DNA of 64,000 bases, from assembly GCF_026210795.1 (NCBI RefSeq), contig NC_089435.1, positions 4,526,001 through 4,590,000 of the forward strand, read 5' to 3'. Below the pieces are notes generated by a model, which was given only the letters and a program-made list of their open reading frames with translations, had not been told where the DNA came from and searched no databases. Source of the stretch: Rhizophagus irregularis (lineage: Eukaryota). Below, piece after piece: positions 21,938-62,138 of this stretch; the stretch's first letter is position 1, and each line of letters opens with the position of its first letter. The translations under genes were made by a program, and so were the position numbers.

Positions 21938-24900
21938 GTATATATTACTTTGCGAAAGGATTAGAGAAGAGTTTTCCAATTGTTAAATAAATTATTTTTT
22001 ATTCGTTTTTATCTTTAAAACAATTTCGTTTTGATTGTATCATCTTGAATTTACGAGATAGTATGTTACGTGTATATATATATTTCTCAGACGACTAGAC
22101 GTGTAGTCGTGTACAGTATCAGTCGTCAATTTTGTCAATAGGTAAACATTCTTTGATTAAATCTATGCATCATAGTATTAAACGTATTCTAATGAAGCAT
22201 CCTTGGAATATAATTTTGCAATTAAGCATTAAATTTTTTTGGGATGGGAGAATAGAGATATCGGTCGAAGACCGATAACCCCCATCTGCGGTGACCAATA
22301 GAAATTAATGTTACTAATTACAGATTTCAATATTGGATATCATAAAATTTCAGTCCGCATCGACTGAACATATTACAGGTTACAGTACAAGTCAAATAAT
22401 TTATTAATTTATTAAAGGATAATTTTTATTTTTTTATGCTTGTGATCATAATTGGAGATTATTTACGTAGATCAAAAGATTTACAAAACCAATAAAATTT
22501 TTAAATTATATTTGGTACACCTTAAAATTAATTAAAATTAATTAATTAATATATAATACTATTCCCATGAATCAGAAATATTGATCCAATGATCCAATGA
22601 ATCGGAAATATTGCGAAATATAATAACTATTTGAAACCAATAAATACAAATATTTTTTTTCATGTCCTTTGTTCTAATCTAAAAATTGATTCAACTCTTT
22701 CTAAAATGTCCCGTTTGAAAGTCAGACTCACGTATAATAAATATCTTTAAAAAGTTAATTCATAGTAATGTTACAACACATAAAAATATTAATTTCTAAT
22801 AACAAAAAAAATATATATATTAAAAAAAAATTCTTTCTCTTAAAAAAAAACTTAAACTTCTTTTTTGGCGCTCGATCTATATTATAATTCGTGCCTACAT
22901 TTGGTACCACATAATAATTTGTAAAATTATAAACATAAACGGTAAAAATGATCGATAAAATAAAAAAGGTATTAAATCATTTTTAACCTAATATGGTTTT
23001 TTTGTTTGACGCATGTTATTTAATTCAATCATTGCATATGCACGACCAAATTTTACGTAAAGTATATTGATTTGCGTAAAGCCGTATATTGATTTTATGT
23101 AAAGTAAAAAATCGGTAATTATAACATAAGTTATCAATTATTAAAGATGAATTTTATTAACCTGCATACGGTTATTACGGTATATCTTTAATAACAGATA
23201 AATTATGTCCTTTGTTCTAATTTTATAATTGATTAACTTTTTCTTAATGACCGATCGAATTTCAATCAAAGTCTTTATTTAAAAAAAAAAATGTCAGATA
23301 GAAACAAATAATTACAATAATTCATCCTAATTATAGGAAACAAAAGACTTTTTGATGATAATATATATTTAAGTCGGATCATTAACTCTGAAACGAATGC
23401 GTCATCAACATGATAAAAGAATATTCTTAAAACTTCAAACCTCGTTCGTATACGTGATGTTATAATATAATATCTTCAATGTCTTGTGAATGTAATTCAC
23501 CCAAGACTCCCAATGTTCGGCGATATGTTCATTCGGCAAATTATCCATTTGGCGAAATGTCCATTCGAAATGGTAGTTTCGGCGAAACGTACTTTTCGGT
23601 GAAATTAATCATGTCGAACGTTTGATTGCATGTGAGAATCAAAAATTAAACCTAATTTAACATTTTACACGGCATAAATTTATTAAACTGTGAAACCCGG
23701 CAATAAACAAATGTCATGATAAAGAAATGTATACATGTATATTGATGTATATTGTTCTCAATTACTTAAAATGATATCCTGAGTACAATCTTTACCAAAA
23801 ATAAATCATCTGAAACTGAAATTTTATCAAAAAAAATAACTAAAAAAAAAACCACAATTACTAAGGAACAAAGATTCATGAATATTCGGATTTTCAATAT
23901 TTTAAAAAAATTGATGATCTTCATGAACACAAACTTTGTTTATTTTTTCTTTTACAAAGAATATATTTATTAAAACTTTGTAATCTAAATTTAAACCTTT
24001 TGACCTAAATTGCTTACGTAAAACTGATCTTTGTCTTTTTTGACTAGTTTATGTATTTATAATTCTTATGGCGTGATTGATTCATGTGAATTTAGTTTCA
24101 TCACGTGAGATTAAGCAAAATATTTATCATTAAAGATCATCTTGACCCAAATGTGGTTTTCGTCGCGCTGTATCCGGAATTTTTTAAAGTAATTTACATT
24201 TTATAATACGTTGCATACATAAATACCAGTAATGTTTCCAGGTTACAGATTTATTTACAATTATATGGATAATCAGATATATTATCGCAATTATCTCTTT
24301 ATTTTCTATATACAGGACGAATATTTTTAGAAATTGTATGACAATTTCGTTTTTACTTAAAGATTGAAACGATTAAATCACCTTTTTAACTATTAATATC
24401 AATAATGCATTATCTGAAACGAAATATGAGTATATGACATCAATACATCAATATCAATCATTAATTGTTATTAATAACGAAAAACGCTCGTTCTTTGACA
24501 AAGAGATAAAGAATAATTTATAAATTTTGTAACTTAATTATAAATACATTTACGAAAATAATTAATAAAAATATTATGATAAAAATATATTTCACGTAAT
24601 TAATTCATTGTTATATCTCATGTTTCACAAAATCAATTTCAGATAAAAAATTTTTGTCAATTATTTCTTTAATAAAGAAACTTGGTGAGCATGAAATCAC
24701 GTTAATTGGTTTTTTACATTTTCATTGATGTCTTTAAAGTTGTTCATTGTACTTTTTTTCTTCATTGCTTATTAGTTCTGACTAACTATTTTGAATCTAA
24801 CAATTGATCATCGTGTTACTTTATTTTTAACGACACACTTTTTTAATAATAAATTACAAGTTACACAATTAATTTTGGTTCTTTGTCTGGAATTATTTTT

Positions 24901-26790: not shown

Positions 26791-26872
26791 CTAATATTCT
26801 CTCTTTTTTTTTCTAACATCAAAATATTTCTCTCCCCCTCTCCTCCAATTTATTTTATTTTTTTTATTAAGA

Positions 26873-28393
26873 ATGCATATAAATAATAAATCCATTTTTT
26901 TATTCCCATTCTTATTATTGATTTTTAATCATATTCCTTCTATATCTTCACAATGTATAGAACCACCTTTATTCGGTAAAACACATAATAAGGCTTGTCC
27001 TTCTGTATCCGAATCACAAAAAAAACCTCTTAATAAGATCACAAATTCATTAGTTAATGATGATGATAATTCTAATAGTATGATAAAAATAATGTTTACT
27101 TGTGATGAAAAGAGTACTCCAGAAACATGTAAAAAAGCAGATATAGCATTTAAAAATGCAGCAACAATAGTTGAAAACACATTCGATCTAAAAGTTCCAA
27201 TAGCGGTCAATGCTAGTTTTGTAAAATTATGTGGTACTTTCATAAAATGTGCAGTTGGTCAACCTGAACCTCTTGGAGCTGCTGCTCCTTCTAGGCTTCT
27301 TCCTATAAAAGATAATACTGATGGTGAAACAAGATTGTTTCCACAAGCTTTAGTAAAACAATTACAATTATCAGAACATCCAGAATTTTCCCCTGTTGAT
27401 ATTGTAGCAGGTTTTAATTCTAATAGTAATGCTTTTTGGTTCAGAGGTGATCCTCCAATTGGTAAAGATCAAGTAGATTTTGAAATAATTTTGGTACATG
27501 AATTTTTACACGGTTTAGGTTTTATCACTTCTTGGGATGATTATTTTAATGCTAATGCAAGTAGTTTAACTCCAACTCCATCATTTATTTTCACTAATCC
27601 GGAAGAAACTGATGGAATAAAGGAAGGTCCTATCACATTTACCGGTTTTCAGGAATATATTTTGGATAGACATTTAGTATTAACAAAAGACAATTCTTCT
27701 CTTACACCTATTGCCAAAAAAATAAATGGTTTTGCCCCTCTTAATACCAAATTTGATGATCAAAAAGCTTTCCTTGATGCATTTACTAAATCTCCTGTAT
27801 ATAAAGAGACCGAAATAATGTTTAAAAATTCCATTACTAGAGGTTCAGTTGCAATTAGATTAGTTGATGGTGAAAATGTTTTAATTGAAACCGGTTTGGT
27901 ACCTTTTAAACCTGGTTCAACTTTTAGTCATGTTGATTTTGATGCTTTTGGTAATACTACCGATTTCTTGATGAGATTTAAAGCTCCTCGTCAAGTTATT
28001 CTTGATGATTTATCACCTATAAATGGTGATCCCGAATATACAAATCCAATTGGTCCAAAAATTATTAGTATATTTAAATCTCTTGGGTAATTATTATTTT
28101 TTTTATTATTATTTTATTTTATTTTATTTATTTTATTTTTAACGTGAAAACTAAATCAATTTTTTTTATTATTTTTTTTTAGATACCCTATGAAAGAAAA
28201 TTCTAGTACCTTTAAAATAATTTCCAATCAAAATCAAGATTCCTTGACCAAACCATCTCAAAATTCTAATAAAACAAAATTAACAACTGAACAACAACAA
28301 CAACAACAACAAACTAATAACGCATTTACCATAACAACAAACACATTATTATTATTTTTATCATCATTCCTTATTTCCAATTTATTACTTTAA
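26873..28393 (+). CDS. secreted zincin-like metalloprotease, probably GPI-anchored; 2 exons (26873..28086, 28183..28393)
   Basis: hydrophobic signal peptide; LGAAAP; ILVHEFLHGLGF (HEXXH); STFSHVD; DFLM. A GT..AG intron at 28087..28182 joins in frame (SLG-YPMKEN) to an S/T/Q-rich stalk and hydrophobic C-terminus. Confidence 0.85.
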
Positions 28394-35691: not shown

Positions 35692-36257
35692 ATTTTTTTT
35701 TATCTTATTTTAATTTGTTTTAATTAATATATTATCAGTCAAAAATCGATTGAATAAGAAAGAGTAAGAGAAAAAAAAAGTGTAGTATTTTTTTTTTTTA
35801 CCTTCTTTTTCTTAAATAGGTGAAACAATGAAACACTAATTTATTGCAAAATGAATATCGGATATTTCATTTCTTTATTTACATATTTATGACTAAACTT
35901 TCTAAATTAGTATAAATTAGTACTAGTCTAAAAAAAAATGAAACCAGGATCTTTATATTAGATTTTAGCGACACAAATAGAGTAATTGTGAAGTGAAAAT
36001 GGTACTCTCATCGAGTTATAATACTAGTACTTTTTTATTACGTTATTTTTTCCATAAGCAGTGATATATCAAGATCTTGTGAAAGATGATTGGCTGAAAT
36101 AAGGTCATCAGACTTGAAAACATGATCAAACTATAAAAAAAAAAACCTTGTGATACAATCAAAAGCATAAATATATAAGGGCGTCATAATAAGGGCGTAT
36201 TATAAACAATTTGTTTTTAAAACGCATTGGCTTTTGAACTTTGTTGTTTTTTAAACA

Positions 36258-37859
36258 ATGTCATTATATTTACCAACAGAATTATTGGACAAAATTTTTT
36301 CTTCGATTGATGGAAATGATATTAAAACATTACATTCTTGTATATTAGTGAATAGAGTTTGGTGTAATACGATGATTCCATATTTATGGAAAAGTCCTTT
36401 TCATCTAGCAATTATGCATCAAACGGAAAAACTTGTACCCGCATACTTTCCTTTTTTTTCCAAAGAAGCAAAACATATTTTACAACTTCATATACCTTCT
36501 ACTTCACCGATTTTCGATTATCCAATGTTTTTAAGAGAATTGGATTTTAATGAAGTTTATTTATTAATAAGAAAATGGTGTGACTTTAAAAATAATGCAA
36601 CAAATAAATTCATCGGATTTGAAGTTTTTAAACAACGAGGACGACAAACTCTACTTTTACTTCAAGAGCTAAGTAAATTATTTATGTTAAAGTGTAATAA
36701 ATTAGAAAATTTGTCTTTGGATACTAGGTCAATTAGATATGGACCTTATGGAAATTTGGCTGAATGTATGTTGTTAACACAGTACCCCGGAGCATCACAT
36801 TGTCTTGCTCCATTAAAGAAATTTGTTTCGAGAGGATCGTATGATAAAGATGCAATATTCAGATCAATGGTTCATTATTGTAAAAATATTGATGAAATGA
36901 TTATTGAGGATAATGATTCTACTGAAAGTGAATCACTTGTAAATTTAATTACATCTCAAAAAAGATTACAAAAATTTACGATTGGAAACTGGTGGGGATC
37001 TTTATCAAAGATATTAAAATCTTTGGGTAATCAATGGAATAGTTTGATTTATGTTGAAATTCATGGATGTCACTTCTATAATTATTTGGATGATTCTTCA
37101 ACCTTTGAAGGACTAATTTGTTGTAAAAATTTAGAGACTTTAAAGATTGAAGATTGTTATAATTTAACAAATGACATTATGAAACCATTAGGAAATACGA
37201 TATTCCCAAAATTACATACTCTTTATTTCTCTAATTATAGGGTAATTGATGATGATTTAGGAGATCATCCTTATCAAGGAATAATTCAAAACAATGATCA
37301 AAATATTCCAGATCATCCTTACTTAGCACTAATAACTATTATTAAGAATTCAAATGCAACATTAAGAAATGTGAGATTAAATATGGATTTGGTTAATTAT
37401 CCTAATATTATTTCAATTTGTGCGACATATTGTCCGAACATTACTTATTACAAAGCAAGAATTCAAAATCATTCGGAGATGAATCAATTATTACAACTCC
37501 TAAAATCTTGTACTCAATTAGAACAACTAGAGATAACAGCAGAAAAATGGGATAGTTCAGTCTCTATTGGATTGCCATGGGAAATTGATTTATTCTTTCC
37601 AGAAATTGGAAAATTATTACCAAAAACTTTAAAATATTTTGATATTGATGGATGGAGTTGTACACCATTGGGTTTAAGTAATTTTTTAAAGAATTGTAAT
37701 GTTGATATTAAGAGGATGAGTTGGATGTGTTATATTAGTAGCGCTGATTATTTGGACGTTATAGAGAAATATGCGAAATTAAAGGGTAGAAAAGTTAATG
37801 GACACAGAGAAAAAAAAGAATGGGGTCTTAATCTTACTTTGATTGTAGATTTTGACTGA
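36258..37859 (+). CDS. F-box + leucine-rich-repeat (RNI-like) protein
   Basis: N-terminal LPTELLDKIF...LHSCILVNRVWC...PYLWKSPF; LRR-like CKNLETLKIEDC, CPNITY, CTQLEQLEI; intact 533-aa ORF. Confidence 0.92.
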   Translation: MSLYLPTELLDKIFSSIDGNDIKTLHSCILVNRVWCNTMIPYLWKSPFHLAIMHQTEKLVPAYFPFFSKEAKHILQLHIPSTSPIFDYPMFLRELDFNEVYLLIRKWCDFKNNATNKFIGFEVFKQRGRQTLLLLQELSKLFMLKCNKLENLSLDTRSIRYGPYGNLAECMLLTQYPGASHCLAPLKKFVSRGSYDKDAIFRSMVHYCKNIDEMIIEDNDSTESESLVNLITSQKRLQKFTIGNWWGSLSKILKSLGNQWNSLIYVEIHGCHFYNYLDDSSTFEGLICCKNLETLKIEDCYNLTNDIMKPLGNTIFPKLHTLYFSNYRVIDDDLGDHPYQGIIQNNDQNIPDHPYLALITIIKNSNATLRNVRLNMDLVNYPNIISICATYCPNITYYKARIQNHSEMNQLLQLLKSCTQLEQLEITAEKWDSSVSIGLPWEIDLFFPEIGKLLPKTLKYFDIDGWSCTPLGLSNFLKNCNVDIKRMSWMCYISSADYLDVIEKYAKLKGRKVNGHREKKEWGLNLTLIVDFD

Positions 37860-43158: not shown

Positions 43159-44764
43159 TATGTAAAAACAGTAAAATCACCATTTTTGCCAAATTTTAGT
43201 GATCTTCAGTAGTGGATTTTTTGACAACTACCAGTCCAACCTTTCTGATTTTTTAAACATAAGCTATTTTTTAGTCAAAGAATTGATTTCTGGCATTCAT
43301 TTGGCTGTAACTACTCTAGTTAAAAAGTTAAGAATTTTGCCATTTTTAAAATTAAAAATTTCTGCTAATTTTTACTAATAATTAAGCTAAAAAACACTTT
43401 TAAAAAGTGTCTCATGTCTCGAACTTTTAAAATAAATATAAATTTATTGTTGGGCCCACTGAATTTTTTATAATTTTATAATTTTTAGGGTGATTGGATA
43501 CTTTTTACCAGAAAGTGTACATTTTAGTGGTAAATTTTTAATGAGTAAATTTTTACTAAAACTTATAAAAGTTCTCTAGTATACTTAGTTTGAAATCATT
43601 TATTAATTTAACTACAAATTAGAAGTATACTTAGTTTAAGATCATTTATTAATTTAATTACAAATTAGATAAATAATAATATTTTCATTTATCATTATGT
43701 GCAATATATTCAATATATTTTAAAATGTTCTGAATATTTGAATCATTTAACAATTTTAGTATTTTCACTTTATGCTTTAAAATTTTTTTTTTTTATTAAT
43801 TTATTATAAATGTAATTTTGTCATATTATAACTATGCTTACTTATATATACTAAATTTATAAAAATGAAAAAAATAAAATATATATAAGAACTAAACATT
43901 ATGAGACATAATTACTTTTTCAAAGAAAAAGTTAACCTGTTATTTAAACTAGTACAGTCAACTCTCTTTATAGTCACACATTTGGGACAGTCCATATTTG
44001 GTGATTATAAAGAGATGTGACTATATAAAAAATTTCTTATATTTGTATATCATAATTCCGGCCAAAAATTAACATAATTTTAGCCAGAATTATACTTAAA
44101 ACTTTATTGTATCGTAACTTCGCCAATATTAATCGTAGAGAGATGATCTTACCGCCATTCGATTCGTCTTGATGAGACGGTTCTAATGGTATAAAATACG
44201 TCGAAATCCAATCACTAGATTAATTTCCGAAATTAAAAAAATATTAATGGTTTTTGTGTAATAACTCTGCCAATATTGATCCTAGAAAGACGATCTTACT
44301 ACCATTCGATTCGTCTTGATGAGACAAATCTAATGGTATAAGATACATCGAAATCCAATCACTAGATCAATTTCCGAAATTAAAAAATATTAAATGGTTT
44401 TTAAGTAATAACTCCGTCAATATTGATCACAGAGAGATGAGCTTACCACCATTCGATTCGTCTCGATGAGGCGATTCCAACGAGCTATAAATCGTCATTT
44501 TACAATCACTAGGTACCGAGAAATCTAGCAAAATGTTAAATGGCGCAGTAAACGTAAATCAAGAAATATAATAATGCCGATGTTTAACATTTTGTTGAAT
44601 AACTCGTCAGCCAGTGATCGGAAAAGGATAAAACTAAAAACTAACTCTCTCCCGTTCTGCTCACTTGACAATATTTACGAAAAAATAAAAAATTTTTTCG
44701 GAGTTTTTTATTACTTTTTCTTTATAATTTCTTTATTTTAGATAACTACTACGACACTTTACAA

Positions 44765-46261
44765 ATGGGTAAAGATAACAAAAAGAAAAATAACCAGTCT
44801 AACAAAGATACTACATCTAAACGTCCTGCCTCTAGCTCTCCAACTGGCAACGTTTCTGGTCAAGGTTCCTCTATGTCTGGCCCTTCGAACACTCCACCTT
44901 CGACCACCTCTACTAATAAACGTACCAGAGTCAGTGCTGAAGACTCTGTCATGGATGTTGATAAACCTCTCACGCCTCCTGGCCCTGTTGAGACAACTTC
45001 CGCTGAGATACCTTCTCAACCTGATACCTCCTCTCTTGATGCCTCTCAACACGCTCCTAACGATAAAGGCAAAAGCCCAGAAATTACTCCCGCCGTTTCC
45101 TTCCCTGAACGTGCTGCCTCCCCGGACGCGTCCCAAGCTGCAGTACAGTCTCAACCTACACTTTTTTACGCCTCGGCTGCTCCTAATGACGTCGAAGGCT
45201 TTTGGACTCACTTCGCTTCGAACCGCGACGCGTGCGACGCGGTTGATAGGCAACTTTCCTTGTTTCCCTCTTATGGTAGTCGTGCCACGTGTAGTGGTTC
45301 CAACGATTTGAAGAGGATCATCATCCACTTCCGAAAAAAGGATGATCTTGACAAAGCCACAGCTTCCGCTATGGATTCCTTGTTTGGCTTGCATTTCCAT
45401 GCATATGACCCCCAGGCTATTAAGGCAGACGAACACGCGCGTACCCTGGTGGTTACCGATATCCCCCTTTTTATAACTGACGCTCTTTTGCGTGGTACTT
45501 TTTCTCGTTACGGCAATATTACTTGCTGCCATACCCGTTTATCTAAACTTTATCGTACTGCATACATTACCTTTGAATCTACTGGTGCTTTACGGGACCT
45601 CGACTCTACCTGGGGCGTCCTTTGTGGAGGACATTGTTTGCGTATCTGCCCCGCTACCTTCTCACCTGACCAACGTGCTGAAAGACGCGCTTATGTCGCT
45701 TTACTTGCCGGTCTTCCGCGTGGTACTATAGCGGTCGATCTTGCTGAAATTGCCGATGAAATTTCCGCTAGATCTGTCAATGTTCCCTTCTCTATGAATT
45801 CCTACAATCCGAAACCTTACGCTTATTGCCATTTTGCCTCTGAAACGGCTATGGAAAACGCTAAATCTATTTCATGTGCCCTTAAGAAAGTTGGCCTTAC
45901 TTGGCATTCTCCGGATGAAGTTACTTCTCTTTGTCATCGATGTGGTCGCCCGAACTGTAACCCTGATCGATGTGGTTCTTCATCTAGACCTAATCGCCCT
46001 TCTCGCCCTTGGCAATCTAATGATAAATTACGTGCTTTATATAATAAGCATCTACCTCCTTCTCATCCTGCTAAACGACATAACCGTTTTGCCCGCCCTG
46101 ATAACAATAATGATGGACAAAGCCGTACCAATGCTTCTCGCCATCGTTCTAAATCCAGACCTAATAACCGACAACAATCTCGTTCTCGTTCTCAACATCG
46201 ACCATGGAATCGTGACAATCTTAACAACAACAATAATAATCAACGTCGTCGTATTCCCTGA
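44765..46261 (+). CDS. LINE ORF1 (RRM-like domains and Cys knuckle)
   Basis: RTLVVTDIPLF..FSRYGNI..TAYITF; LLAGLP..YAYCHF; CHRCGRPNC; RS-rich tail. Confidence 0.85.
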   Translation: MGKDNKKKNNQSNKDTTSKRPASSSPTGNVSGQGSSMSGPSNTPPSTTSTNKRTRVSAEDSVMDVDKPLTPPGPVETTSAEIPSQPDTSSLDASQHAPNDKGKSPEITPAVSFPERAASPDASQAAVQSQPTLFYASAAPNDVEGFWTHFASNRDACDAVDRQLSLFPSYGSRATCSGSNDLKRIIIHFRKKDDLDKATASAMDSLFGLHFHAYDPQAIKADEHARTLVVTDIPLFITDALLRGTFSRYGNITCCHTRLSKLYRTAYITFESTGALRDLDSTWGVLCGGHCLRICPATFSPDQRAERRAYVALLAGLPRGTIAVDLAEIADEISARSVNVPFSMNSYNPKPYAYCHFASETAMENAKSISCALKKVGLTWHSPDEVTSLCHRCGRPNCNPDRCGSSSRPNRPSRPWQSNDKLRALYNKHLPPSHPAKRHNRFARPDNNNDGQSRTNASRHRSKSRPNNRQQSRSRSQHRPWNRDNLNNNNNNQRRRIP

Positions 46262-46779
46262 TGCAAATGAACTTGATCACTATGCCTGATGGCATGGATG
46301 TTACATATCCTGCTCCTCCTACTGTGCTTACTGATTGGAAATCTATTGGTGCTGCTCTTGAAAAAGTAGTTGAAGAATTAGCCCTTCTTACCACACAATT
46401 TGCTTCTATGAACAGCCGCATCACTAATTTGGAATCTGCTATGGCTGCTCGTACTCCTATTCCTGGACCTTTTGTCGCTAAACCTTCTTCCTACATCCCT
46501 TCCTCTATGCAAGGATGGGATGATACAGTGAATCGAACTGATAATAATATCCTTGTTGATGTTAATTCTCCACCTTTGCAATCAACAAGTGGTTTTTCCC
46601 CGATTCCTCATTTTGCTCCCATCCCACCTTCCAACGTCACTCCTTCCTCCCCTATTGATATGGAACAGCGTCTCTCCTCTCTTTCTGATACTGTTGCCTC
46701 TTTGGCTGGTTCTATTAAAGAAGGAATCCAACAAAACAACCTCATCTTGGCTCGGCAACAAGGCCAAGCCAATCAATAA
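46261..46779 (+). CDS. ORF1 C-terminal segment or separate small ORF with coiled-coil-like stretches
   Basis: ATG overlaps the ORF1 stop (TGATG); heptad-like LEKVVEELALLTTQFASMNSRITNLE. Confidence 0.55.
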   Translation: MQMNLITMPDGMDVTYPAPPTVLTDWKSIGAALEKVVEELALLTTQFASMNSRITNLESAMAARTPIPGPFVAKPSSYIPSSMQGWDDTVNRTDNNILVDVNSPPLQSTSGFSPIPHFAPIPPSNVTPSSPIDMEQRLSSLSDTVASLAGSIKEGIQQNNLILARQQGQANQ

Positions 46780-46833
46780 TTGTTCTTTTTTTTTTTTCCC
46801 CCTTCTTTATTACCGATTTATCAGTGTGTAATA

Positions 46834-49800
46834 ATGATGGACAACAATAAACATAATTTTTCCCCTCACCCCTCTCCCCTTATTAAATTTGGTCAATTAA
46901 ATGTTAATGGTTTATGTTCCCCGGTTCGACAACAACATTTGCTTAATTTTTTTCTTCACTCCTCTTTTGGTGCTTTATCTATTAATGATACGCGTCTTTC
47001 CCCTTCAAATGCTAAATTTATTTTTAAAAATGAACACTCCCAACATCACTTTAAGTCCTATTGGGCTTGTTCATCTTCTTCTTCTCGCCCTCATGATGGT
47101 GTTGGTATTTTATTACGTAATCCCCTTCATAAACATGTTCAAACAATTGATCCTTGGAACGGTCGACTTCTTAAATTAGATTTGTTTTTTCATCAAACTA
47201 AAATTTCTATTATTTCTGTATATTATCCCCCTTCCGGCTCTGTTCATCAATCTATTTGCAATGATCTTATTGCCAAACTTCTTTCTTGGCTCGATTATGC
47301 CCGAGCTAATAATTATTTTGTAGTTATTCTTGGCGACTTCAATGCTGATGTAATCGCTCATTCTAATTATTCACCTAATCATTTTAAGCTTCTTCGCTTG
47401 CTTTCCTCTCGGTTTTTTACCGATCATCAAGCTCACTCCTCTACAAATGGTCCTGATCCCACTTTCTTTTATGATAATGGATCTTCTCGACTGGATTATA
47501 TTTGGTCTTCGCCTGGTTTTCCTGCCCCTGGTCTTTTTTCGCAAGTGGTTACTTGTCCGAATCTTTTTGATCGACCTTTCACCGACCACAAAGTTCTTAC
47601 AACTGTTTTTGACTTTAATTCTTGTTTGGCCATTTTGGCTAAATCTCGTCTTAAACAAAAAAAAGAAATGCGTACTATTTTTTCTTATGCTTCCACTTCA
47701 GTTGAACAATGGAATAATTTTACCGTTGAAGTAGATGATTCTCTTGGAGTTTATTTAGATAGCCATTATCGCCCTAATTCTGATTTCTCCTCCCTTTCTC
47801 TTGATCGTATGTGGCATGCATTGAAAGCTGCCATAATTAGTGCTGCAATTGAAACATTACCTTTTCAAAAAGTCTCTAATACACACCGACATTCGTACTC
47901 TCCTGAATTAACTAAACTTATTGCTATTAACAAGTTTTTAGATCGATTTTTATATCGCCTTACTACTCGTCGCTCTAATCGGCCCGCTCAGATTGTGCAA
48001 ATGACTGCTGCCTTGCCTTCCCATCTTGAGAACCTAGCTTCCTTACTTCCTGATTATTCAGTTCCTACCTATTCCACCACCCCTGCATCTGTATTTAAAT
48101 CGTTTTTACGATCACAGAAGAATTTAGTTTCTGCCTTTTTATCTACTAAATTCGCCCAACATCTTACGGACTCAGTGGAATATTATACTGCACTACGTGA
48201 CGAACACTTTTCGAACTCGCTCGGCACCTTTATCGATTCTGCCTTATCAGTAGAAAAACGTTCAATTGTTCTTGACCGTGTTCTGGTCGTTTTGGACTCA
48301 ACTCCTACTTTATTAACGGATCCTTCGGATATTAAACATGCAGCTGTTTCTCATTTCCAATCAATTGTTTCTCCTCCGTTGGTCCACTATTCTTCCATCA
48401 CTTCATTTCCCGCCCGATGGCAACAAGCTTACACTCCTCTTACAAATGTGTCTGCTTCATTATATGATCCTGTTTTGGCGCCTATTTCCCTACAAGAATG
48501 GTCTGCTGTGATTTCCTCCATGCCAAATAATAAAGCTTCCGGCCCTTCAAAAATTTCCTATGAGATGATTAAACACTTGTCCGGTGAAGCCTTGGATTTT
48601 TCTCTTTTACTTGCCAATACTTGCCTTTCTCGCGGTGATATTCCTGCTGACTGGCGTGAAGCCGTGGTTTATCCTATTCCTAAACCTCATGACTTTGATG
48701 CTCAACTTAAGAACACTCGACCTATTACCCTTCTGGAAACAGTTCGAAAATGTGTAGTTAAGGTCGTCACGAATCGTCTTTCCAACATCCTTGCTGATAG
48801 TAAAATTCTTCAAGGTGGTAATTTTGCTGGTTTACCTGGTGGTTCTACTGATGTCCCTATCAAAATGCTGGATGCGATTATTCATCAACATAAACATGAC
48901 TCTACTGATGATCAGGAACTATGGATCGTTTCTCAAGATATCTCTAAAGCTTTTGATTCTATGGATTTAAATATGCTTAAATTAGCTTTAGATAGGTTAC
49001 ATATCCCTGCACTTTTAGTGCGATTTATTTTAAATCTTTTTACACGACGAAATAATAAGATAATTACTTGTCATGGCGATACAGCTGCTTACAGAGTACG
49101 TGTTGGTATCGATCAGGAGAAATCATTTCCCCTCTTCTTTGGGTTATTTATTTGGATCCTTTACTTACTGTTTTGAATCAACAAGCACGAGATCCCTTTA
49201 TTTTAAAATCTTCAGCCCTTTTAAATTATTCTCCACTTGAATTTGAACAACATTCTTTACCGGTTTCACATTTAACGTTTATGGATGATTCTACACTCAT
49301 TGCTTCTTCAAAATCTGGCATAGAAGACCGTCTTTCTATTACTGCTGAATTTTATACTTTAAATAATGTTCAAGCTAATTCTGCGAAATATGTTCTCCTT
49401 TCATCCTCTTCCCCCTCCTCGAAGATTATTTTTGATCTTTCCCCTTCTCCTTTAGTTCCCATTCCTTTCCTTTCCCTTTCTTCTTTATCTGTTAAAACTT
49501 CGTTTCGTTTTTTAGGAGTATGGTTTTCTTTATCTGCCTCTTCTGCTTTTGTTCTCAGACAAGTGCGCTCCATGGTTAAAGATATGGCAGCTCTCCTGGG
49601 ACCGAAGAAATTATTAGCACAGCATGTGGCCTATCTTTATAATGCTGTCCTTCTTCCGCGATTGGAATTTCGCCTTCAAACTACCCTTTTTTCTGAAAGT
49701 ACTATTCAAACAATTGTCAAGCCTATGTTTTCGGTACTTCGAAGAAAAGCTGGTCTTGCTGCAACTACCCCGTTACCTTTATTATTCCTCAAACTCCCCT

Positions 49801-52208
49801 TTTCTATTCAAAATGCTTTTTATCGCTTTCTTTCTTCCCATATTGCATCTTGGCAAAAAATCTTCACTCACCCTGATTTCAAAAATTTTGCCCTTTATGC
49901 TATCTCCTATCTTCAAGGATATTTGGGTGCTGAGAGTTGCCCGACTACTATCAACTTAGAACCATGGTCACAAATCGTTTCTTTGCGAACGCACACTTTG
50001 TTTAATTCGTTATTGTTTTCTTCGCGTTTGAACATCACGTGGTCTCTTTCCTTCCGGCCTCCGAGGCGTGATCTACAACCTGCTTTGCCACTTCGATCTA
50101 TTCTACCTCATTCCATCTTTCAATCAAGTTGGAAACTTTGGAAAAACCTGAATATATTTGTGCTTGCTCAGTTGGTTTCTCCTTGTGGACGTTATCTTAT
50201 GAATTGGCCTGACCTTCGTTATCTTGGCATCGTTGGTCGTAAAGGACGGATTCCTAATTGGTTTACTTTTATCAATAATAATTTTCTTTCTTCTTTTTCT
50301 TCTACTTTACTTTTATCTTCATATTTTATTAATTCTTCTTTTACTTTAGTTTCTCCTTGTTTATTAGATCATACTGTTAAAGATTATTCTTTTTATCCTC
50401 AATGGGCTATTAATCTTGACTCTGCTACCCAAACTTTATCTGTTGGTCGTGTGTGTATCACCTACAAGAAACAAAACTCGGCTATTATGTCGCATTGGCT
50501 TCCTGTATCTCCCTCGGCTGATGAACGATCCTATAACCCTTGTCCTGGTTGTGCTCTTAACATTCCTGCCTTATCCAAGAAATCTGCTATCAAACAACGT
50601 TGTAATAGTGAGAAGTGTTTTTTCAATATCACCCTGTCGGAAACTGTGGGTTACCCTACTAGAAACGCCAAAGTTTTTGCGGCCTACCTCCCCATCACTC
50701 TTTCTACTTCATGGAGTTATGCCACGTCCTTGGCTCTTGTTCATTTGATGAACCCGCCCTCAACCGCTTCTTTCACCTTTTCTCCTTCTGTTAAGGACCA
50801 TTTAGATGATGATGTTTTGCCGTCTTCTGTGCAATCTTTGTATACCGATGGCTCTTTCCGTCCTGCCAATGATTCTTTATCCTCTTCCATGGCTTCTGCT
50901 TGGATTGCTCTCGATGATGATGGATTTATCCTTGAATCTTCATCCATGCATCTTCCCTCTTGTTTCCCTTCGGCTTTACGTTCTGAAATTTATGCTGTCT
51001 TATTAGGATTGACCGCCCTCTCCCGTGATTCTTCAATTTCTATCTATACTGATTGTAGTCAGTTAATTTCATTATGGACACGTTTTGTTGATGTTCCTTT
51101 CTCACCGAAGTTGCTTCGAGAACCTAATCATCTTCTTTGGTTTTCTATTCGACAACTTATTATGGATCGTAACCTCCATGTCGATTTGATTAAAGTCCCT
51201 GCTCATGGCGATGACATTTATAATGAACAAGCGGATTCTTTGGCAAAAGATGCTCATTCATCTATACAACCTTCTGTTTCGCCTTTGGCATTTTGTCACG
51301 CTCCATGCTTGTTAACTTTTAATTCTTTACCTGTTGACATGAATATTCGTCACTTTCTTCGCTCTATAGCAGACGCTCATGCTCTTTTATCTTTTTGTTC
51401 ATTGGCACGTTTTACTGCTCTTGGTTCTCCTTCACTTTTTGATTGGGCTGGTATATATTTTTGCCTTTCACAAATCAAAGGTTTTGCTTCACATAAGAAT
51501 GGTCGTCCGGAATTCTGGATCTTCCGTATCAAACTCCTTTTGGATATGTTGCCTACCTTAACTACTCTTTAACAACGCAAACCTTACTTATACTCTCCTG
51601 ACTGGCTTTGTCTGCAGTGTAACTCTGCTCCAGAAGATTTGAATCATCTTTGGACTTGTCCTTATATTTTACCGGAATTAAATCCTTGTTTAACACACCG
51701 GTCTGAAGTCATTAAATTTAGAGATTCTTGTTTATCTTCCTTTCTATCCTTGAAATCTTTGGATATTTCTTTTCAAACTGAATTCTTTGCTTTGGAATGT
51801 TGGAACTATGAAGCTCCTTCTTTATCCTGTCTTTGGCTTACTCGAGGATTGTTGCCTGCACATTTAACGACATTTTTGAATCAACATTTCTCTCTTTCTG
51901 TTATATATAAGACTATTTCTCCCCTTCTTAATGACTTCCAAGTCGAATTATATGGTGAAATTTGGCTATGCCGGAATGTTCTTTTTCATGCTTGGGAAGA
52001 GTCGCAGGGTATCTCGGCTGCTTCCAAATTACGTGGCCCTTCTACAAATTCTTCTTCTAATACTATCTCTCCTCATCATCACGACTCCTCTTTGGCGACA
52101 GTTTCTCAGGGATTCCTGGATTTCTTGGATATCCTCTTCTATAATTCGGGGTGGATCATAGATCTCGCACCTGGATTTTCTGCGCCGCTTAACAGTTCAA
52201 CCTCTTAG
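46834..52208 (+). pseudogene. LINE ORF2 (AP endonuclease, reverse transcriptase, RNase H, C-terminal Zn motif), with frameshift and nonsense lesions
   Basis: APE: NVNG, GDFN, SRLDYIW, TDH. RT: KASGP, RPITLLE, DISKAFD, GIDQ/GEIISPLL (frameshift ~49118), FMDD. RNase H: YTDGS, RSE, YTDC, VPAH..NEQAD. TAA at 51570, then CLQC..DLNHLWTC. Confidence 0.93.
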
Positions 52209-53129
52209 GATCTCTTTCTGGTAAACGGACTGGATTTTTGGATGTTGGATAGTTGACTCACACTGGCCTTCGGGTAAAGTTGGGGTATGCGATTCTGTAA
52301 TAGTTTAGTTTTTCTTTGCTTTAATTTATTTTAGTTTAGATTTCTTTACTTGTATGAGTCGTGAAGCTACTCTTTTTTATTTTTATTAGTTTATTTTCTT
52401 ATTTTTGTAATATTGTTCGATGTTATTTTCGAAGTTCTAAATATAAATAAAAGATAAAGTCGTAAGACTGTTTGCACAGGAAAAGGATAAAACTTGGGTT
52501 GGTCACCCTATCTTGGTGGTTAGTCACTGAGACCCTCATTAAGCCTGAGTATGGTGAGGTCGCAGGTTCGATTCCCATGACCACGGAAATAAAAAGAATT
52601 TTACTGCGGACGCTACAACCAATAGCGTGAAGGTACAGGATTAGTGTAGTTGGACTGCATCATGGTGAATTAGTGTGTACGGTTAGGCCGCACATTTCAA
52701 CTAAGGGTCATGGTGTCCTTCTAACGTTCCCTATGAGGCCATTGGTATGTGCGCAGTCCTGTCCTTGAGGTCGCTACTATACCTTAGGGGGACTTCCTGT
52801 CCGGGTGGTCGGCTCTACGATACCGCTTGGGGTCAGTAATGGCTAGATGGTCGTCCTAAATGGTAAAGCTGAGGGTGCAATGTCTTAGTGGTAGTTAGAC
52901 CTTCTGTTAGGTCTTAGACCAACCAAGGTGTTCGTGCACAGAACAGGTAGCATGGCTATGGCTTCGATTCCCTACTCCCTTGGGTCCTTTCGAGGAGAGA
53001 TCCCTGGTGGTTGATACCCACCATAAGGGGTGATCCTGGACAGATGCCTGCTACTTCCTGTCTGAGTGGTCACTACAAAGTATACCACTTGGGGTAAACA
53101 ACTGTACTATCGGTGCTAGGTAATCGCGG

Positions 53130-55528
53130 TAGGGTTGGTAAAATAACCGTTAGTTATGAATTTGGTTAATTAACCGGTTAATTAACGGTTAGTTAACGGT
53201 TAATTAACCCATAAATAACCTGTATATATAATTTTAAGGAAGTTAAAATAAATTTATAATTTATTAAATATTATAAAATTTTAATATATTTTATTTATTC
53301 TTCATCATCTAAATTAATAACATTTGCTTCAAATCCAAATATACTATCATTATCAGAACTATTATTATTATCATCTTCTTTATTTTCATTATCAGAACTA
53401 TTATTACTATCTTCTTCATTTTCATTAAAATTACTAATCTGTTTCTTTTTTTGTATTTTTACAAGTCTATTACACATTCGAAGATTTCCATAAATATAAA
53501 CTAATTTTTTAACACGTTCATTTTTCAATCTATTTCGAATTTTATTATGAATAAAACCAAAAGTAGAAAAATTTCTTTCTGCAGCTGCAGAAGATGTAGG
53601 AATTGAGAGAATTTTAATAGCCAGTTGTTGAAGTTTACTAGTTGGCCATGATTGCCACCATAAAGATGAATTAAGAATATTAGCAGATTTCCAAATAATT
53701 TCATTATCATAAGGTGAATTTTTATTACGAAAATTTACCAATTCAGCAAATAATTCTACTGCTTCTTCCTGATTAAATCTTTTATTTACAAATGTTGTAA
53801 ATTCTACATAACCAATAGATTCAACTTCATCATTTTTACTTTTTTCCAAAAATTGTGGATCTAACATATAAGCTGTTATCATAATAGGATGATAAGTATA
53901 TTCCCATCGCTTTGCAATAAGTTCTTGAAGTTTATCAGAAAAATTACAATCTATTTGATTAATTTGATTCATTACTTCTTTGAAATATGAATAAACATTT
54001 GAAAGAATTGAAATATCTGATTCAAATAACTTTAATGCTGAAACCATTGGTTCCATAATTTTTGTTATTATATCTAAATCTTCCCAAAACTCATCTGATA
54101 AAATATGAGCTCTTAAAGTTAAATCCATATTTTGACGAATTCTTATATCCATTAAAGCCTGTTCAAGTGCTGTTCTTGAATTTTGAAGTGATTGAAAACA
54201 AGCAAGATGTGTTCCCCATCTTGTAAGTGCTGGTAAAACCAATGCAATTTCTTTAGAATAATTTTCTTTTTGAATACGTTTCAATTTAGCTGTTGCCTGT
54301 ACATGTGCCTTAAAATAATTGACCAACTTTTTTGCATTTTCAACAACAGATTTAATTTGATCAATCTTTAAAATATCACTAATTAAAAGATTCATTACAT
54401 GAGAATTACATCCTAAACAAACAATACTTGGATAACTATCTTCAATAATTCGCCAAGCTGCTTTCATTACACTAGCTGTATCTGTAATAACTGCTGAAAA
54501 TTTATTAATACCAACAATTTCCATTTGTTTAATAATTTCATCTGCAACCCATTTAGCTGTATGAGATTCTTCACCAGAATAAATAGCATCAAAGAATAAT
54601 GGTTTTGGAGTACAAATAACAAAATTTTGAACTGATTCTCGATTAATATTAGACCAACCATCTGAAACCATTGTAAGAGATTTAGCTTGTAAAATTTGTT
54701 CATTACATTCAGCTTTAACTTCATCAAAAACATCATCAAGTAATTCATCAGCAAGTTTTCTTCGATTAGGTAATTTGAATGCTGGACGTAATTGTTGAAA
54801 AAACTGAATAACATAATTATTTTCAAGAAAAGAAAAAGGAACTCCAGCAGCAAATAATGCTTGAGCTAGTAAAATTTCAAGAGTATCTTGTTCTTCTTCA
54901 CTCATACGATCAACAAAATTCTCAATTGTTGTATTTTTTAAATGCTTTTTTGATGTTTTTACTGTAGGAATAAAAGTAGAAGTAGTAGCATCAGAAGTTT
55001 CTAATAGTTCAGGGAATTTGTTGTTTCTTTGTTTTTGCACTTTCTGGAGCTCTAGGACAACTATCATTAAGATGAACTTGCATTCTTTTAGCTGTACCTT
55101 GTTCAAAAACTTTAGAACAATAATTACAACGTACAGAAGGATGTGTTTTTTTCTTAGACCTACTACTTTCTTCATTACTTTCTGCTTCAGTAATTATTGT
55201 CCAATGTTTCCAAACAGTTCCCTTTTTTTTTACCATGATAATGAACAATAAATTTGCAAAAAAAAGTGTTTTTTTAAAAAAAATTTATCTTAAAAAAAAA
55301 GATCATGCAATATGTAGATCATAGATTTAATCAATATTTATATTAATTAATATTTAATTGTGTAACAAAATAATGGATTATCATTTAATCACATGATTTA
55401 AATTCTGCATTTTGATTGGCTAATTATAAATAACGGTTAATTAACCATTTTAAATCAATCATAACTAACAAAATTAACGGTTAATTAACCATGGTTAATT
55501 AACCGTGGTTAATTAACCCCCATCCCTA
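53130..55528 (-). mobile_element. hAT DNA transposon, ~2.4 kb
   Basis: termini TAGGGTTGG / CCATCCCTA; perfect 8-bp TSD AATCGCGG; subterminal TTAACCG/CGGTTAA repeats. Confidence 0.95.
53295..55248 (-). CDS. hAT transposase (BED finger + DUF659-like catalytic region + dimerisation domain); one frame break near 55020
   Basis: WKHW..CNYC..HLNDSC; SDGWSN; ITDTAS; CNSHVMNL; TRW; SSAAAERNFS. Confidence 0.9.
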
Positions 55529-55898
55529 AATCGCGGGCTGTAGTGGCCTTTGAGTGAGACTTAGTACCTAAAATGGTAGTATGGAAGGGTACTAGATGGT
55601 TGATGTTACCTGTCGAAAGTCCTCCATGAAAGTAGATGCTCTCTAAAGGTCGTTAAATAAATTGAGTATCAGTATCATGCAATAGGTATAGGATGAGTAG
55701 GCGGCGTGTGCTAGCTTCAGATCGGCCTAAAATGGCCCGATGGGAGATGTCTTCTATAGCGGTGCTCGTTACCTGAGGAATTAAGTACTGGTATAATGGT
55801 TGCCCATTGAAGATGATAGGACGCATACCCGCATTAGTCTCATAAGAGGCAATGGGTGGTCTGGCCGTAAACACTTGCAAAGGAAAAGGATAAAACTA

Positions 55899-56875
55899 GG
55901 GTTGGTCACCCTATCTTGGTGGTTAGTCACTAAGACCCTCATTAAACCTGAGTATGGTGAGGTCGCAGGTTCGATTCCCATGACCACGGAAATAAAAAGA
56001 ATTTTACTGCGGACGCTACAACCAATAGCGTGAAGGTACAGGGATTAGTGTAGTTGGACTGCATCATGGGTAATAGCGTGTACGGCAGGCCGCGCATTTC
56101 AAGTAGGGGTCGTAGTGTCTAACGTTCCCACTGTGCATGGGGCCATTGGCATGTGCGCAGTCCTGTCCTTGAGGTCACTACTATACCTTGGGGGGACTTC
56201 CTGTCCGGGTGGTCACTCTACGATACCGCTTGGGGTCAATAATGGCTAGATGGTCGTCCTAGATGGTAAAGCTGAGGGTGCAATGTCTTAGTGGTAGTTA
56301 GACCTTCTGTTAGGTCTTAGACCAGCCAAGGTGTTCGTGCGCAGAACAGGTAGCATGGCTATGGGGTTCGATTCCCTACTCCTTAGGTCCTGGTTGGTGA
56401 TCCTGGTGGTTGATACCCACCATAAGGGGTGATCCTGGACGGATCTGCTACTTCACTCCTGTCTGAGTGGTCACTACAAAGTATACCACTTGGGGTAAAC
56501 AACTGTACTATCGGTGCTAGGTAATCGCGGACTGTAGTGGCCTTTGAGTGAGACTTAGTACCTAAAATGGTAGTATGGAAGGGTACTAGATGGTTGATGT
56601 TACCTGTCGAAAGTCCTCCAATGAAAGTAGATGCTTCTCTAAAGGTCGTTAAATAAATTGAGTATCGGTATCATGCAATGGGTATAGGATGAGTAGGCGG
56701 CGTGTACCTAGCTTCAGATCAGCCTAAAATGGCCCGATAGTGGATGTCTTCTATAGTGGTGCTGTTAGCGAGGAATTAAGTCTTTCGGTATAATGGTTGC
56801 GATTGAAGATGATAGGAGCACGACCCGAGATTAGTCGCAGAGGCAATGGGTGGTCTGGCCGTAAACACTTGCAAA
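55899..56875 (+). mobile_element. tRNA-headed SINE-like element, copy 2 (intact, 977 bp)
   Basis: same head; second GGTTCGATTCC near 56365; flanked by GGAAAAGGATAAAACTA at 55882 and 56876. Confidence 0.88.
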
Positions 56876-58609
56876 GGAAAAGGATAAAACTACCACCATT
56901 CGATTCGTCTTCAGTGGCAGACCAATTCTAACAAGCTATGATACATCTTTGTACGATTATTAGATGCCAAGTTATTTAATATATTCTTTATATAACTGCG
57001 ATTATAAACGGTTCTTTTTAATATAAGATTTTTGAGGATAGGTGTGATAGTGACTATAGATAGATTGTGACTATATAGGATAGATTTTAATAATAAAGTG
57101 TTTTGAACATTCAACTGGTGTGACTATATAGTAGAATGTGACTATAACGGGAGTGACTATAGAGGGAGTTGACTGTACACCAATATGTTATTAATAAAAA
57201 ATTTTTTTTAAAAATTAAAGTAAATTTTTTAAATTATTTTATTTATAATTTAAATTTTAAGACATAAATGTAAATTTATTAAAGTTTTCAATTTAAATAA
57301 AATTTTTTATTATTTATCAAATTCTTCAACTTTAGAATCTTTATTTTCATTATATTGACATATAAATATTTATATTTTCATCTTATCAAAACACTTTTTT
57401 CAAAATCTAACTGTAACTTTAAATCTTAAAAACATATAATAATTTGTCTCTAATAGTAAGAAGATTAGGATAAAGCTGGCTTTCAGTTAGTAATTACACT
57501 TTTTACAGTAGACTAAACTCCTTTGATCAGTTGTAGTTTATAATAGTAAAGTAAGGTATATGAAACACTAATGTTCATTTTGAAATATATGGTCATTTTT
57601 TTCAAGTTTTTGTCATAATAGATGTATTGAAAGTGGGCATCAGAAATATTTGCAGAAATAACAAGACTGTGTATAAGCTCAACAATATCACAGTTAAGCT
57701 CTTTTTTTTGGTTAGCCATAATTTTTTTGTGATAAGATTTTATTTTTATTATATTCAGCAATCACGTGCATAATTGTTGCCTCTTTAATAACAATAACTG
57801 TAGTAACCTTTTTACGTAGTGATAAATCTTAAGTTGTTTCCAATATTGTCAAATATTTAAAAATTATTGATAAACGTGAATAATTACTTTTTTTCATTGA
57901 TTGTTAATTAAAAAAATTAAAAAATTTAGTCATATTCTGTATTATCTATAAAGTAAAAAAAGTGTATTTTTGTTGATAAAGTTAAAGGTAAAAATATTTC
58001 TTACCTATTATATAATAGTTATGTTCATATAACTTGATTGTTGATTTTTATGTAATATTACCAATTTAGGTAATAATTTTTATGTATCAACACTTTTGCA
58101 CTGGACTATATATTATTATGATTTTTTTCCTTTTTAGTTAATTAACCAATAGAATTTAAGCAAATCCTAAAGTAAGATTTCATATAAAAGTGAAATTCCT
58201 ACTGGCAACATATCTTAGTAGTAAGTAAAATCATAGTACAACCTAAATTAATTGTAAAAAAAAGCTAGTATATTTTATAAATATCATATGATCCAGCAAT
58301 TCAATTTTAATAAACATTTTTTTATTTTGATTAGCTTAATATAATTTACAATAACAAAAAAAAATTATTAAAATCAGATCAGATTACTAAAATTCTGATT
58401 TGATCTGAATTTTTAGGAGCTAATCTAAATGATTATATCATTATTATAAATAATAATACAACTAAAAAAATTTTTAGGTAACTGTCAAGATCTGCCTTAA
58501 AATTTGCCCAATAACTTTTCTAATAAAATGCTAAATTATTCCATTTATTTTACTTTATACTTTAAAATATTAAAATTAAAAATCATTTTTATAACAGCTA
58601 GTCTATTAT

Positions 58610-59785
58610 TAAAGCTCCTAACGGTTTAAGCCAAACTGGGAAACCGATCTGAAACTGGCTCAAAATTTGATTCAGTTCAGTTTGGGTATTAGAACCGAAA
58701 AATTGGCAGTTTGGTTCAGTTTAATCCAATTTTTTATAAAAATGTGAAAACCCAAATAGCCACCCATCTAGTGATCGTACAAAGTCAAGCCATATATCAT
58801 TGGATTCGTCTCAACAAAACGCATCAAATGGAGGTAAAATCATGTCTCTAACATCGATAGATCACACGTTAACCCACGCTAAATGTTTTATCAATAATTG
58901 AAATTAGCAAGCTATTTATCAGTGCTAGAGGCATGATCTTAGCACCATTCAACGCGTTTCAGTGAGACAAATCCAATGAATATAAATTCGTCCATGTACA
59001 ACCACTGGATGGCGAATAATGTCAAGTTTTGCATTTTTTTAAAATTTTTGAACGTTAAAAATTAAAAATACTGATACATGAATTTATTCGTTGTCCAATG
59101 GTCATACAAATATGAATTAGGACTCATTGGATTCGTCTCGATGAGACAAGTTGAATGGTGGTAAGATCACGTCTTTAGCATCAATAAATAGCTTGTTAAT
59201 GCCAATTTTTTATAAATCATTTAGCATAAATTAACATATGATCTATTGATGCTAGAGACATGATCTCACCACCATTCGACTTGTCTCATCGAGACGAATC
59301 TAATGAGTCCTAATTTATATTTGTACGACCATTGGATGACGAATAAATTCATGTATCGGAATTTTTAGTTTTTAATGCTCAAAAATTTTAAAAAAATGTG
59401 AAACTTCATATACAGACAAATTTATATTCATTGGATTCGTCTCACTGAGATGCGTCGAATAGCGCTAAGATCATATCTCTAGCATCGATAGATAGCTTGA
59501 TAATTTCAATTATTGATAAATTATTTAGTGTGAATTAACGTATGATCTATCAATACTAGAGACATGATCTTACCGCCATTCGACGTGTCTTGTCAAGACG
59601 AATTTAATGATATATGGCTTGACTTTGTATGATCACTAGATGAATGGCTATTCGATTTTTCACATTTTTATAAAAATCGGATTAAACTGAACCGAACTGC
59701 CGGTTTTTTGGTTTGGTTCTTACGGATTTCAGCTCTAATCTGAACTGTCTGTAATCCAGAACAAACTGACCTGTTCGGAGCTTTA
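58610..59785. mobile_element. hAT-type non-autonomous element with six internal palindromic modules
   Basis: TAAAGCTCC...GGAGCTTTA; TSD TCTATTAT. Confidence 0.88.
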
Positions 59786-61239: not shown

Positions 61240-62138
61240 ATTGGAATCATCTCAATAAGACAAATCTAATGGTAGTAAAATCAAATTTTTAGGATTAATA
61301 GTTAATAAAAAATTAAATAAAATATAAATGATACATTTTTATATTTATATTTTACTTAATTTCTCATCAAGTATTAACCCTAGAAATGTGATTTTACTAC
61401 CATTAGATTCGCCTTATTGAGACGATTCCAATGAGCTATATTTTATCCCTTTCTGATTATTGGATCAAAAGTTAGCAAACTGCTTGATTGGTGATGATAT
61501 TTGGTGAAAATGCTAATCAGTTACCAATTGGTTACCAATTAGCTACTTAATTGGTGACCGATTGGTGACTGATTGATACCTGATTTTTCACTTTTCGATC
61601 TGTGCATAAAAATATTACTACCACTTTTTGACCATTAATTAGAGAATCGTAGAAATGTAATATATAACAGTATTTTTTATTTATTTTTTCTAATAACTTT
61701 TATTGTTAATAGTTATGAATAAAATTTCTTGGCAATTGAATAGAACATTAACAAAAATTGCAATTAATCTTCATTATTTTTTGCAATTATATTATCTTAG
61801 GTTAGAATACCAGTCAAGTATTTTTTGCTAAAATAATCGAATCACTTGACTTTTTGTTTTATTTTTTTACTTCTGATTGAAAAAGTGGGCAAAAGCCATA
61901 TTAAGAAAAATAATAGTAAGTTTTTTAAAAATATTAAGTTAAAAGAAATTTTTCTTAATAAATGCCACTAGTGTCAAATATCACTAGTAGAAAAATCTGA
62001 ATCTCTTAACTTTTTTTTACTTTTTTATAGCATATATAGTATATACTACATATATATATCATAAGGTATTATAAAAAAATTTTAATTTTTTTTTCCCTAA
62101 ATTTTCTACTCTTTTACTAATAATACTAGTGATACAGA

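Follow-up and report, generated by a model that had tools for sequence, protein, structure and literature searches.

The unit at 55899–56875 (+ strand) of the window, by which we mean the whole 64,000-nt stretch of Rhizophagus irregularis DNA analysed here, belongs to a high-copy 977-nt non-coding retroposon, whose most distinctive trait is that it occupies a single fixed 17-bp site of a MITE, where a LINE is inserted as well. We read 55899–56875 as a non-coding repeat unit of about 977 nt seated at this MITE site and likely to be a tRNA-headed SINE, with predicted Pol III transcription and copying by a LINE, and give this reading a probability of about 0.8. The element is likely an exceptionally long, MITE-homing, SINE-like retroposon that is present in RNA, with the adjoining LINE as its candidate partner. 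An initial annotation of the window had called the unit mobile, non-coding and SINE-like, and this is borne out by target-site duplications, 5′-truncated copies, many copies and presence in RNA. The limits and composition of the unit stand as described there. That description did not extend to a further copy of the unit, to the duplicated target sites, to the MITE and LINE around it or to an internal module repeated three times.

A non-coding unit nested within a MITE

Both edges proposed at the outset, 55899 and 56875, fall precisely between two copies of a target motif, which in sequence comparison abut the 977-nt unit (hereafter unit 2) exactly. Its composition is likewise as first described: GC makes up 48.6% of the unit but 26.8% and 23.8% of the two flanks, the longest T run inside the unit is 4, and no credible ORF is present, the longest stop-to-stop frame overlapping 55899–56875 being 95 aa. 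The recurrence of CTA(G/A)ATGG also holds, with three occurrences of CTARATGG in unit 2, every one as CTAGATGG, while CTAAAATGG is found twice.

An empty copy of the host MITE lies elsewhere in the window (10413–11373, +; 961 bp, TA-flanked) and contains a single target site (11078–11094), compared with four in the filled MITE at 43955–57175. The filled copy has been opened at the motif and holds, all on one strand, the LINE, motif, unit 1, motif, unit 2 and motif, yet it still has a terminal inverted repeat and a TA flank at either end; its left arm (43955–44619, with TA flank and terminal inverted repeat) agrees with the empty copy in 675/684 columns, and its right arm (56893–57175), in which the first T5 run lies at 57015, in 279/286. 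Motif comparison places the first target-site copy, GGAAAAGGATAAAACTA, at 44620–44636, the second (16/17 match) between the LINE and unit 1 at 52479–52495, the third between units 1 and 2 at 55882–55898, and the fourth between unit 2 and the right MITE arm at 56876–56892 (all +). The LINE occupies 44637–52478 (+). Unit 1, recognised by self-comparison, is split into a 5′ part (52496–53129, +) and a 3′ part (55537–55881, +), the latter being of the type that RNA and most DNA contigs show. The two units agree in 915 of 999 alignment columns and differ in 84. The two parts of unit 1 are separated by a hAT DNA transposon inserted on the opposite strand (53130–55528, −), which encodes DUF659 and a hAT dimerisation domain and is flanked by an 8-bp target-site duplication (TSD) at 53122–53129 and 55529–55536. 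Palindromic GGTTAATTAACC subterminal repeats are present at both hAT ends, and its 632-aa open frame is uninterrupted; the transposon is possibly young.

Several further features of the window were recorded. The host MITE (10413–11373, 43955–44619) contains internal repeats of about 147 bp, and related repeats that do not include the target motif lie at about 58770–59640 and 61240–61440. Three open frames of 361, 136 and 338 codons at 1950–5129 (−) have no Pfam match at E≤0.01 and are probably pieces of one larger mobile-element gene. A 431-codon frame at 26795–28090 (+), with a hydrophobic N-terminus and a HEFLH motif, resembles a secreted zinc metalloprotease and has no Pfam match; a frame of 534 codons at 36255–37859 (+) encodes an F-box-like protein. 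Minisatellite-rich repeat blocks, some of them inverted, occupy 5319–6559, 7278–7839, 14176–15002 and 18041–21939.

A tRNA-like head and promoter boxes

Unit 2 begins with a tRNA-like head (55899–55988, +) that includes an A-box-like sequence at 55912–55922 (2 mismatches), a hairpin at 55914–55935 and an exact B box at 55968–55978. A second tRNA-promoter-like module (56243–56375, +) has A-box-like sequences at 56243 and 56284 (1 mismatch each) and a further exact B box at 56365–56375. The two B boxes that had been noted, in the head and near 56365, are therefore both exact, and none of 5000 shuffled sequences had two. The accompanying claim of a tRNA head holds for these boxes and is weakened in respect of overall tRNA-likeness: ARAGORN with default settings reported 0 tRNAs, and the matches that it gave under relaxed settings were rejected, as shuffled sequences yield about 2–5 each. 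An Infernal comparison with Rfam, put forward in the initial annotation as a check on its reading, produced no family that fits; the sole tRNA match, to tRNA-Sec, scored 17 bits (E 2.5) and 16 bits for the two heads in the window against a cut-off of 47, which is too weak for tRNA-Sec to be accepted as the source tRNA. Rfam gave no match to the 3′ part of the element, and no tRNA match to the head of L001, a metagenomic copy of the element described below; this head may resemble class II (Ser-type) tRNAs.

A tRNA origin is not proven, because the Rfam match lies below the cut-off, the L001 head has no tRNA match and the ARAGORN matches are like those of shuffled sequence; judged from sequence, the tRNA head is plausible but weak. 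The motif TGGT occurs 18 times on the + strand against 9.4 expected, a count reached by 2/300 shuffles, which fits D-loop-like pieces and proves nothing. Pol III transcription of the element is a prediction from the A and B boxes together with the lack of T5 runs.

Element RNA in soil and root-zone libraries

Among the 24 runs listed, six element-bearing runs are recorded as RNA, and four of these, from four studies, were mapped. RNA contigs cover the element in 4/4 of these soil and root-zone libraries, which were selected for holding the element and whose contigs carry no strand, ends or true level. One contig of 960 nt begins at 55919 and ends on the first base of the motif that follows the unit. 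Depth on the element is 72, 270–960 and 154–425 in three of the runs and about 3 in X18, against 0–3.3 on the MITE arm in the same four runs; in the DNA runs, depth on the MITE arm equals or exceeds that on the element. Because the MITE arm is nearly absent from the RNA and deep in the DNA, carry-over of DNA is an unlikely source of these contigs. None of the RNA contigs in the four runs extends into the MITE, though one would have to go some 140 nt beyond the unit to reach the first T5 run, and none crosses the unit–target–unit junction at 55883–55918. That the contigs stop short of the MITE although the element has no T-run terminator at its 3′ end counts against the reading as a Pol III SINE.

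Contigs start at 55919 in X15 and X20 but near 55948 in X16 and X18, and so hint no more than weakly at a 5′ end. A joint in X15 leading from 56763 to 55768 was considered as a sign of circular RNA and rejected, as it reflects the better fit of the 3′ end of unit 1. The RNA letters are those of the DNA family majority, and at 7 of 11 sites compared they are shared with unit 1 or L001, identifying unit 2 as a minority type within the family. Loose ends in X15 and X16 at 56199–56276 come from low-depth RNA contigs of a diverged relative, with which the module core and TAGATGG motifs are common; these contigs hint at related families or species.

Chance-level folding overall and one covarying module

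The unit had also been described as hairpin-dense. The six stem pairs listed in support are all present, as are complementary GGTCA/TGACC ends, yet the description does not hold for the unit as a whole: the z-score of the whole-unit fold is +0.34 on the + strand and −0.60 on the − strand (20 shuffles each), and hairpin counts are within chance, with 11 perfect hairpins of at least 5 bp (10.2 expected by chance) and 5 of at least 6 bp (2.6 expected; 31/300 shuffles as high). None of 22 windows of 100 nt falls below a z of −1.2 on the + strand, and the lowest value on the − strand is −1.62. Two blocks of unit 1 fold more stably than their randomised versions (12/300 and 3/300). In four diverged blocks, compared in both directions, structure is kept no better than under random changes in 8/8 comparisons; compensatory helices that had been picked out by eye in these blocks were rejected, as their shared-pair scores were no better than random in all eight. 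The covariation term of a three-copy alignment is unfavourable (+4.25).

What survives of the claim of a structured RNA is one small module, present three times on the + strand (56159–56196, 56197–56238 and 56455–56498), which covaries. The module consists of a conserved TCCTGTC leader, a 10-bp helix and a GGTC..ATACC core. In an alignment of nine rows that represent three paralogues picked by eye, 90/90 cells of the helix are paired and 3/10 pairs are changed on both sides, while the helix slid out of register is 38–67% paired; RNAalifold recovers the same helix unaided. A search with a model of the module returned the nine training modules and one partial match at chance level. The head of L001 has a hairpin in the equivalent place with other letters (8/9 pairs, shuffle P about 0.01).

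Known structural RNAs offer no match. Five of five Rfam searches found 0 matches to SRP, RNase P/MRP, snRNA or telomerase RNA at E≤10 (E≤5 in one of the searches). The sequence at 56529–56545 presumably recalls the Alu-domain motif of fungal SRP RNA; Rfam searches of unit 2 gave no SRP match. As regards self-cleavage, Rfam yielded no ribozyme match, and a consensus hammerhead core motif is absent from unit 2.

This evidence bears on a different origin, in which one functional, abundant cellular non-coding RNA, able to bind a host protein through its repeated hairpin, gave rise to the copies, either as retropseudogenes or as a SINE family, with mobility as a by-product; BC1 and BC200 are the comparison for such an origin. 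Near-identical RNA contigs of high depth in metatranscriptomes of three of the four studies, the consistent pairing and doubly changed pairs of the threefold module, and the L001 head hairpin kept with different letters all speak for it. However, the RNA letters are those of the family majority, which many young copies would explain equally well, no global signal of structure is seen in the fold, the covariation term or the eight diverged-block comparisons, no Rfam family matches, and the case for the module is made by three paralogues chosen by eye. We regard such a cellular origin as unlikely. A related and similarly doubtful proposal is that the element, composed of tRNA-like modules and a threefold protein-binding hairpin, is a domesticated, very abundant Pol III RNA of about 1 kb in arbuscular mycorrhizal fungi that has a cellular role and is still spreading, by means of a MITE-homing LINE, as the longest known SINE. 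One such role might be to soak up RNA-binding or RNAi proteins in symbiosis.

Evidence for independent insertions at one MITE site

The reading as a site-specific retroposon draws on copies beyond the window. A scan of metagenomes for the pattern of the internal module found one locus, L001, which is a MITE copy with another outer flank, 95–96% identical to the MITE copies of the window. L001 holds the element directly behind the motif and has no LINE, its head letters differ, and it departs from the window in junction letters and cargo order. A head-motif scan of metagenomes returned 0 matches; the module motif and the target motif each had 0 in viral contigs and in prokaryote genomes, and 0 relatives of the LINE were found in viral contigs.

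Four DNA runs were mapped onto the region (2396–9916 contigs per run), giving thousands of short contigs whose summed depth far exceeds single-contig depth, a measure that does not give copy number. In run X2, at least six joints (among the 15 of 28 listed) lead from 55897–55899 to 55979, 56525, 56532, 56561, 56676 and 56681; such joints, which link the motif end to points inside the element, indicate 5′-truncated copies in tandem. A loose end at 56457 in run X3 joins the left MITE arm to an internal position of the element. The share of aligned sequence that continues into unlike DNA is 0 in 4/4 DNA runs, and no end of the element appears among the 24 of 725 loose ends listed; at the MITE end (57177) the flanks are mixed, with an agreement of 0.51. 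Duplications around insertions measure 16–17 bp. One site has thus been used in independent MITE copies, namely the window, L001 with its other flank, and the X3 junction, and the element occurs in different MITE copies (window and L001), yet also head to tail. The listed joints and loose ends thus speak for a single site that has been entered repeatedly and independently, although copies may also lie outside the MITE.

Alternatively, one ancient insertion into the MITE may have been amplified passively as a composite DNA transposon, with no continuing retrotransposition. Since the filled MITE retains its inverted repeats and TA flanks at the two ends, it could be mobile as a whole; against this, many different 5′-truncation points lie behind one motif, the window and L001 differ at their junctions, in cargo order and in the head, and the tandem units have diverged at 84/999 columns, and we consider such passive spread very improbable. 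Least credible of all is a non-autonomous LTR element (a Helenus-type TRIM with LTRs at 55529–55898 and 56523–56892) or retrozyme-like circular RNA multimers, since the 370-bp direct repeat (92% identical, around a 625-bp core) that suggests a TRIM is a hAT-truncated tandem unit, its apparent left LTR being the 3′ part of unit 1 severed at the 8-bp hAT TSD, the duplications are 16–17 bp rather than the 5 bp that accompany the two LTRs of a TRIM, and no ribozyme match and no RNA contig over 55883–55918 were found; the LTR reading was rejected, although tRNA-bearing TRIMs are known in fungi (PMC10886601), the available part of that Helenus report making no mention of Rhizophagus or Glomeromycota.

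A candidate LINE partner and a proposed mechanism

The LINE adjoins the element at the same site and in the same orientation, in one copy (n = 1, 44637–52478). Its ORF1 (about 44765–46261, +) contains an RRM, and its ORF2 (46834–52208, +) encodes an APE endonuclease, reverse transcriptase (RT) and RNase H, interrupted by a frameshift near 49083–49167 and a stop near 51570. The two pieces of ORF2 share 98% and 92% identity with a Rhizophagus irregularis protein, and among its 42 protein matches 41 bear the name of this species; the nearest solved structures, human L1 ORF2p (74.5 bits) and R2 (66 bits), do not discriminate its clade. Between ORF1 and ORF2, and overlapping the end of ORF1, lies a 179-codon open frame (46240–46779), which is an additional ORF or else the tail of ORF1 after a frameshift. 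The R. irregularis gene model P0001 (3845 aa) contains two endonuclease–RT units, which suggests tandem LINE copies elsewhere in the genome.

The 3′ tail of unit 2 (56856–56875, +) weakly resembles the final 20 nt of the LINE; with the window length chosen post hoc, 24 of 7760 windows from the LINE body score equally, and the likeness fades at 22–30 nt. Blastn found no further similarity between LINE and element, and unit 2 has neither a poly(A) nor a simple-repeat tail. The partnership is tentative because there is one LINE copy and the tail likeness is weak; it is nonetheless likely that a LINE family using the same site copies the element into the MITE.

A cycle consistent with these observations would start with internal A and B boxes driving Pol III, which would read past the single T4 run of the element. 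Near-full-length element RNA, without flanking MITE, is present in the libraries and could serve as the intermediate. The APE endonuclease of the LINE would then nick at the start of the motif, GGAAAAGG, and its RT would prime on the 3′ end of the element, perhaps recognising the short 3′ end, weakly alike, that the two have in common. Such a nick at the motif start with 3′-end priming fits the junctions, of which the 3′ is fixed in 3/3 insertions in the window and the 5′ are ragged. Integration duplicates the 16–17-bp site, and 5′ truncation is frequent. As each insertion would regenerate the target, LINE and SINE copies could stack within the MITE, and a process of this kind would produce the head-to-tail pile-up of LINE and SINE observed here, with the MITE serving as a harmless, multicopy landing pad.

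Relation to known retroposons

The closest parallel is the crocodilian SINEU-3, which, like the Tx1-Mar LINEs that accompany it, inserts into Mariner-N4_AMi, where it has a 16-bp TSD and occurs in tandem (PMC4494074). According to the available part of that description, both systems pair a non-autonomous retroposon with a LINE at one site in a non-autonomous DNA transposon, both have TSDs of about 16 bp that are sandwiched between tandem copies, and both include 5′-truncated copies, which mark independent insertion. In contrast to SINEU-3, with its U1/U2-derived head and poly(A) tail, our element has a tRNA-like head and no poly(A) tail, is 977 nt long with internal repeated hairpins, and resides in a fungus; SINEU proper (snRNA head, poly(A)) is further set apart by the lack of any U1/U2 match in Rfam and of poly(A) in unit 2. 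The LINE described here, unlike Tx1-Mar, has an RRM-containing ORF1 and RNase H, and the likeness is one of behaviour, not shown membership. The best reading by analogy is that the element may work as SINEU-3 and Tx1-Mar do, as a target-specific, LINE-mobilised SINE, but is not a SINEU. In Xenopus, the APE-type LINE Tx1L targets Tx1D, a non-autonomous DNA transposon (PMC4494074), which resembles the arrangement here in its APE-type LINE and non-autonomous host; Tx1D is of piggyBac type, and the available portion of that source mentions no SINE partner for Tx1L.

SINEs are defined as shorter than 700 bp in general, with a working limit of <1 kb, and as nontandem, and a tRNA-derived head calls for ≥60% identity to a tRNA over ≥60 nt (PMC3531059). 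Our element is non-autonomous and non-coding (longest frame 95 aa), bears the marks of target-primed reverse transcription (TPRT; 16–17-bp duplications and truncation joints), and at 977 nt lies below the 1-kb limit and above 700 bp, while its tandem copies depart from the nontandem definition. The claim that it is much longer than typical SINEs is upheld by SINEBase, whose 175 families measure 75–662 nt, about 300 nt short of the element (PMC3531059). Fungal tRNA-derived SINEs include Mg-SINE and SINE2-1_BG (PMC3747384). In common with SINE2 elements, some of which are complex or multimeric, and as far as the available description extends, the element joins an A/B-box head to a body that traces to no known source, has a second B-box module and TSDs, and probably depends on a LINE; it differs in its 977-nt length, fixed target, tandem arrays and lack of a simple-repeat tail. 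A curated TE library of R. irregularis lists SINE as a newly curated family, and SINEs are reported to be upregulated in colonised roots (PMC11075540); the available text gives no sequence, length or target for this family, which may or may not include our element. Our literature searches turned up no account of a SINE from these fungi that is long or targets a MITE, and Repbase or the PMC11075540 library may already contain the repeat.

Significance

Homing of a LINE and a SINE to one site in a DNA transposon, previously described for crocodilians and, for the LINE alone, in Xenopus (PMC4494074, as available in part), likely arose in a fungus also, in the form of an element whose length extends the range of SINE sizes by about half. 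With a defined target of 17 bp in a multicopy and probably dispensable element, the LINE endonuclease would be a candidate tool for site-directed insertion. The RNA of the element, deep enough to assemble from soil metatranscriptomes, could serve as a sensitive marker of active R. irregularis. Finally, the element puts a name to part of the two-thirds of R. irregularis repeats that are reported as unclassified (PMC11075540).
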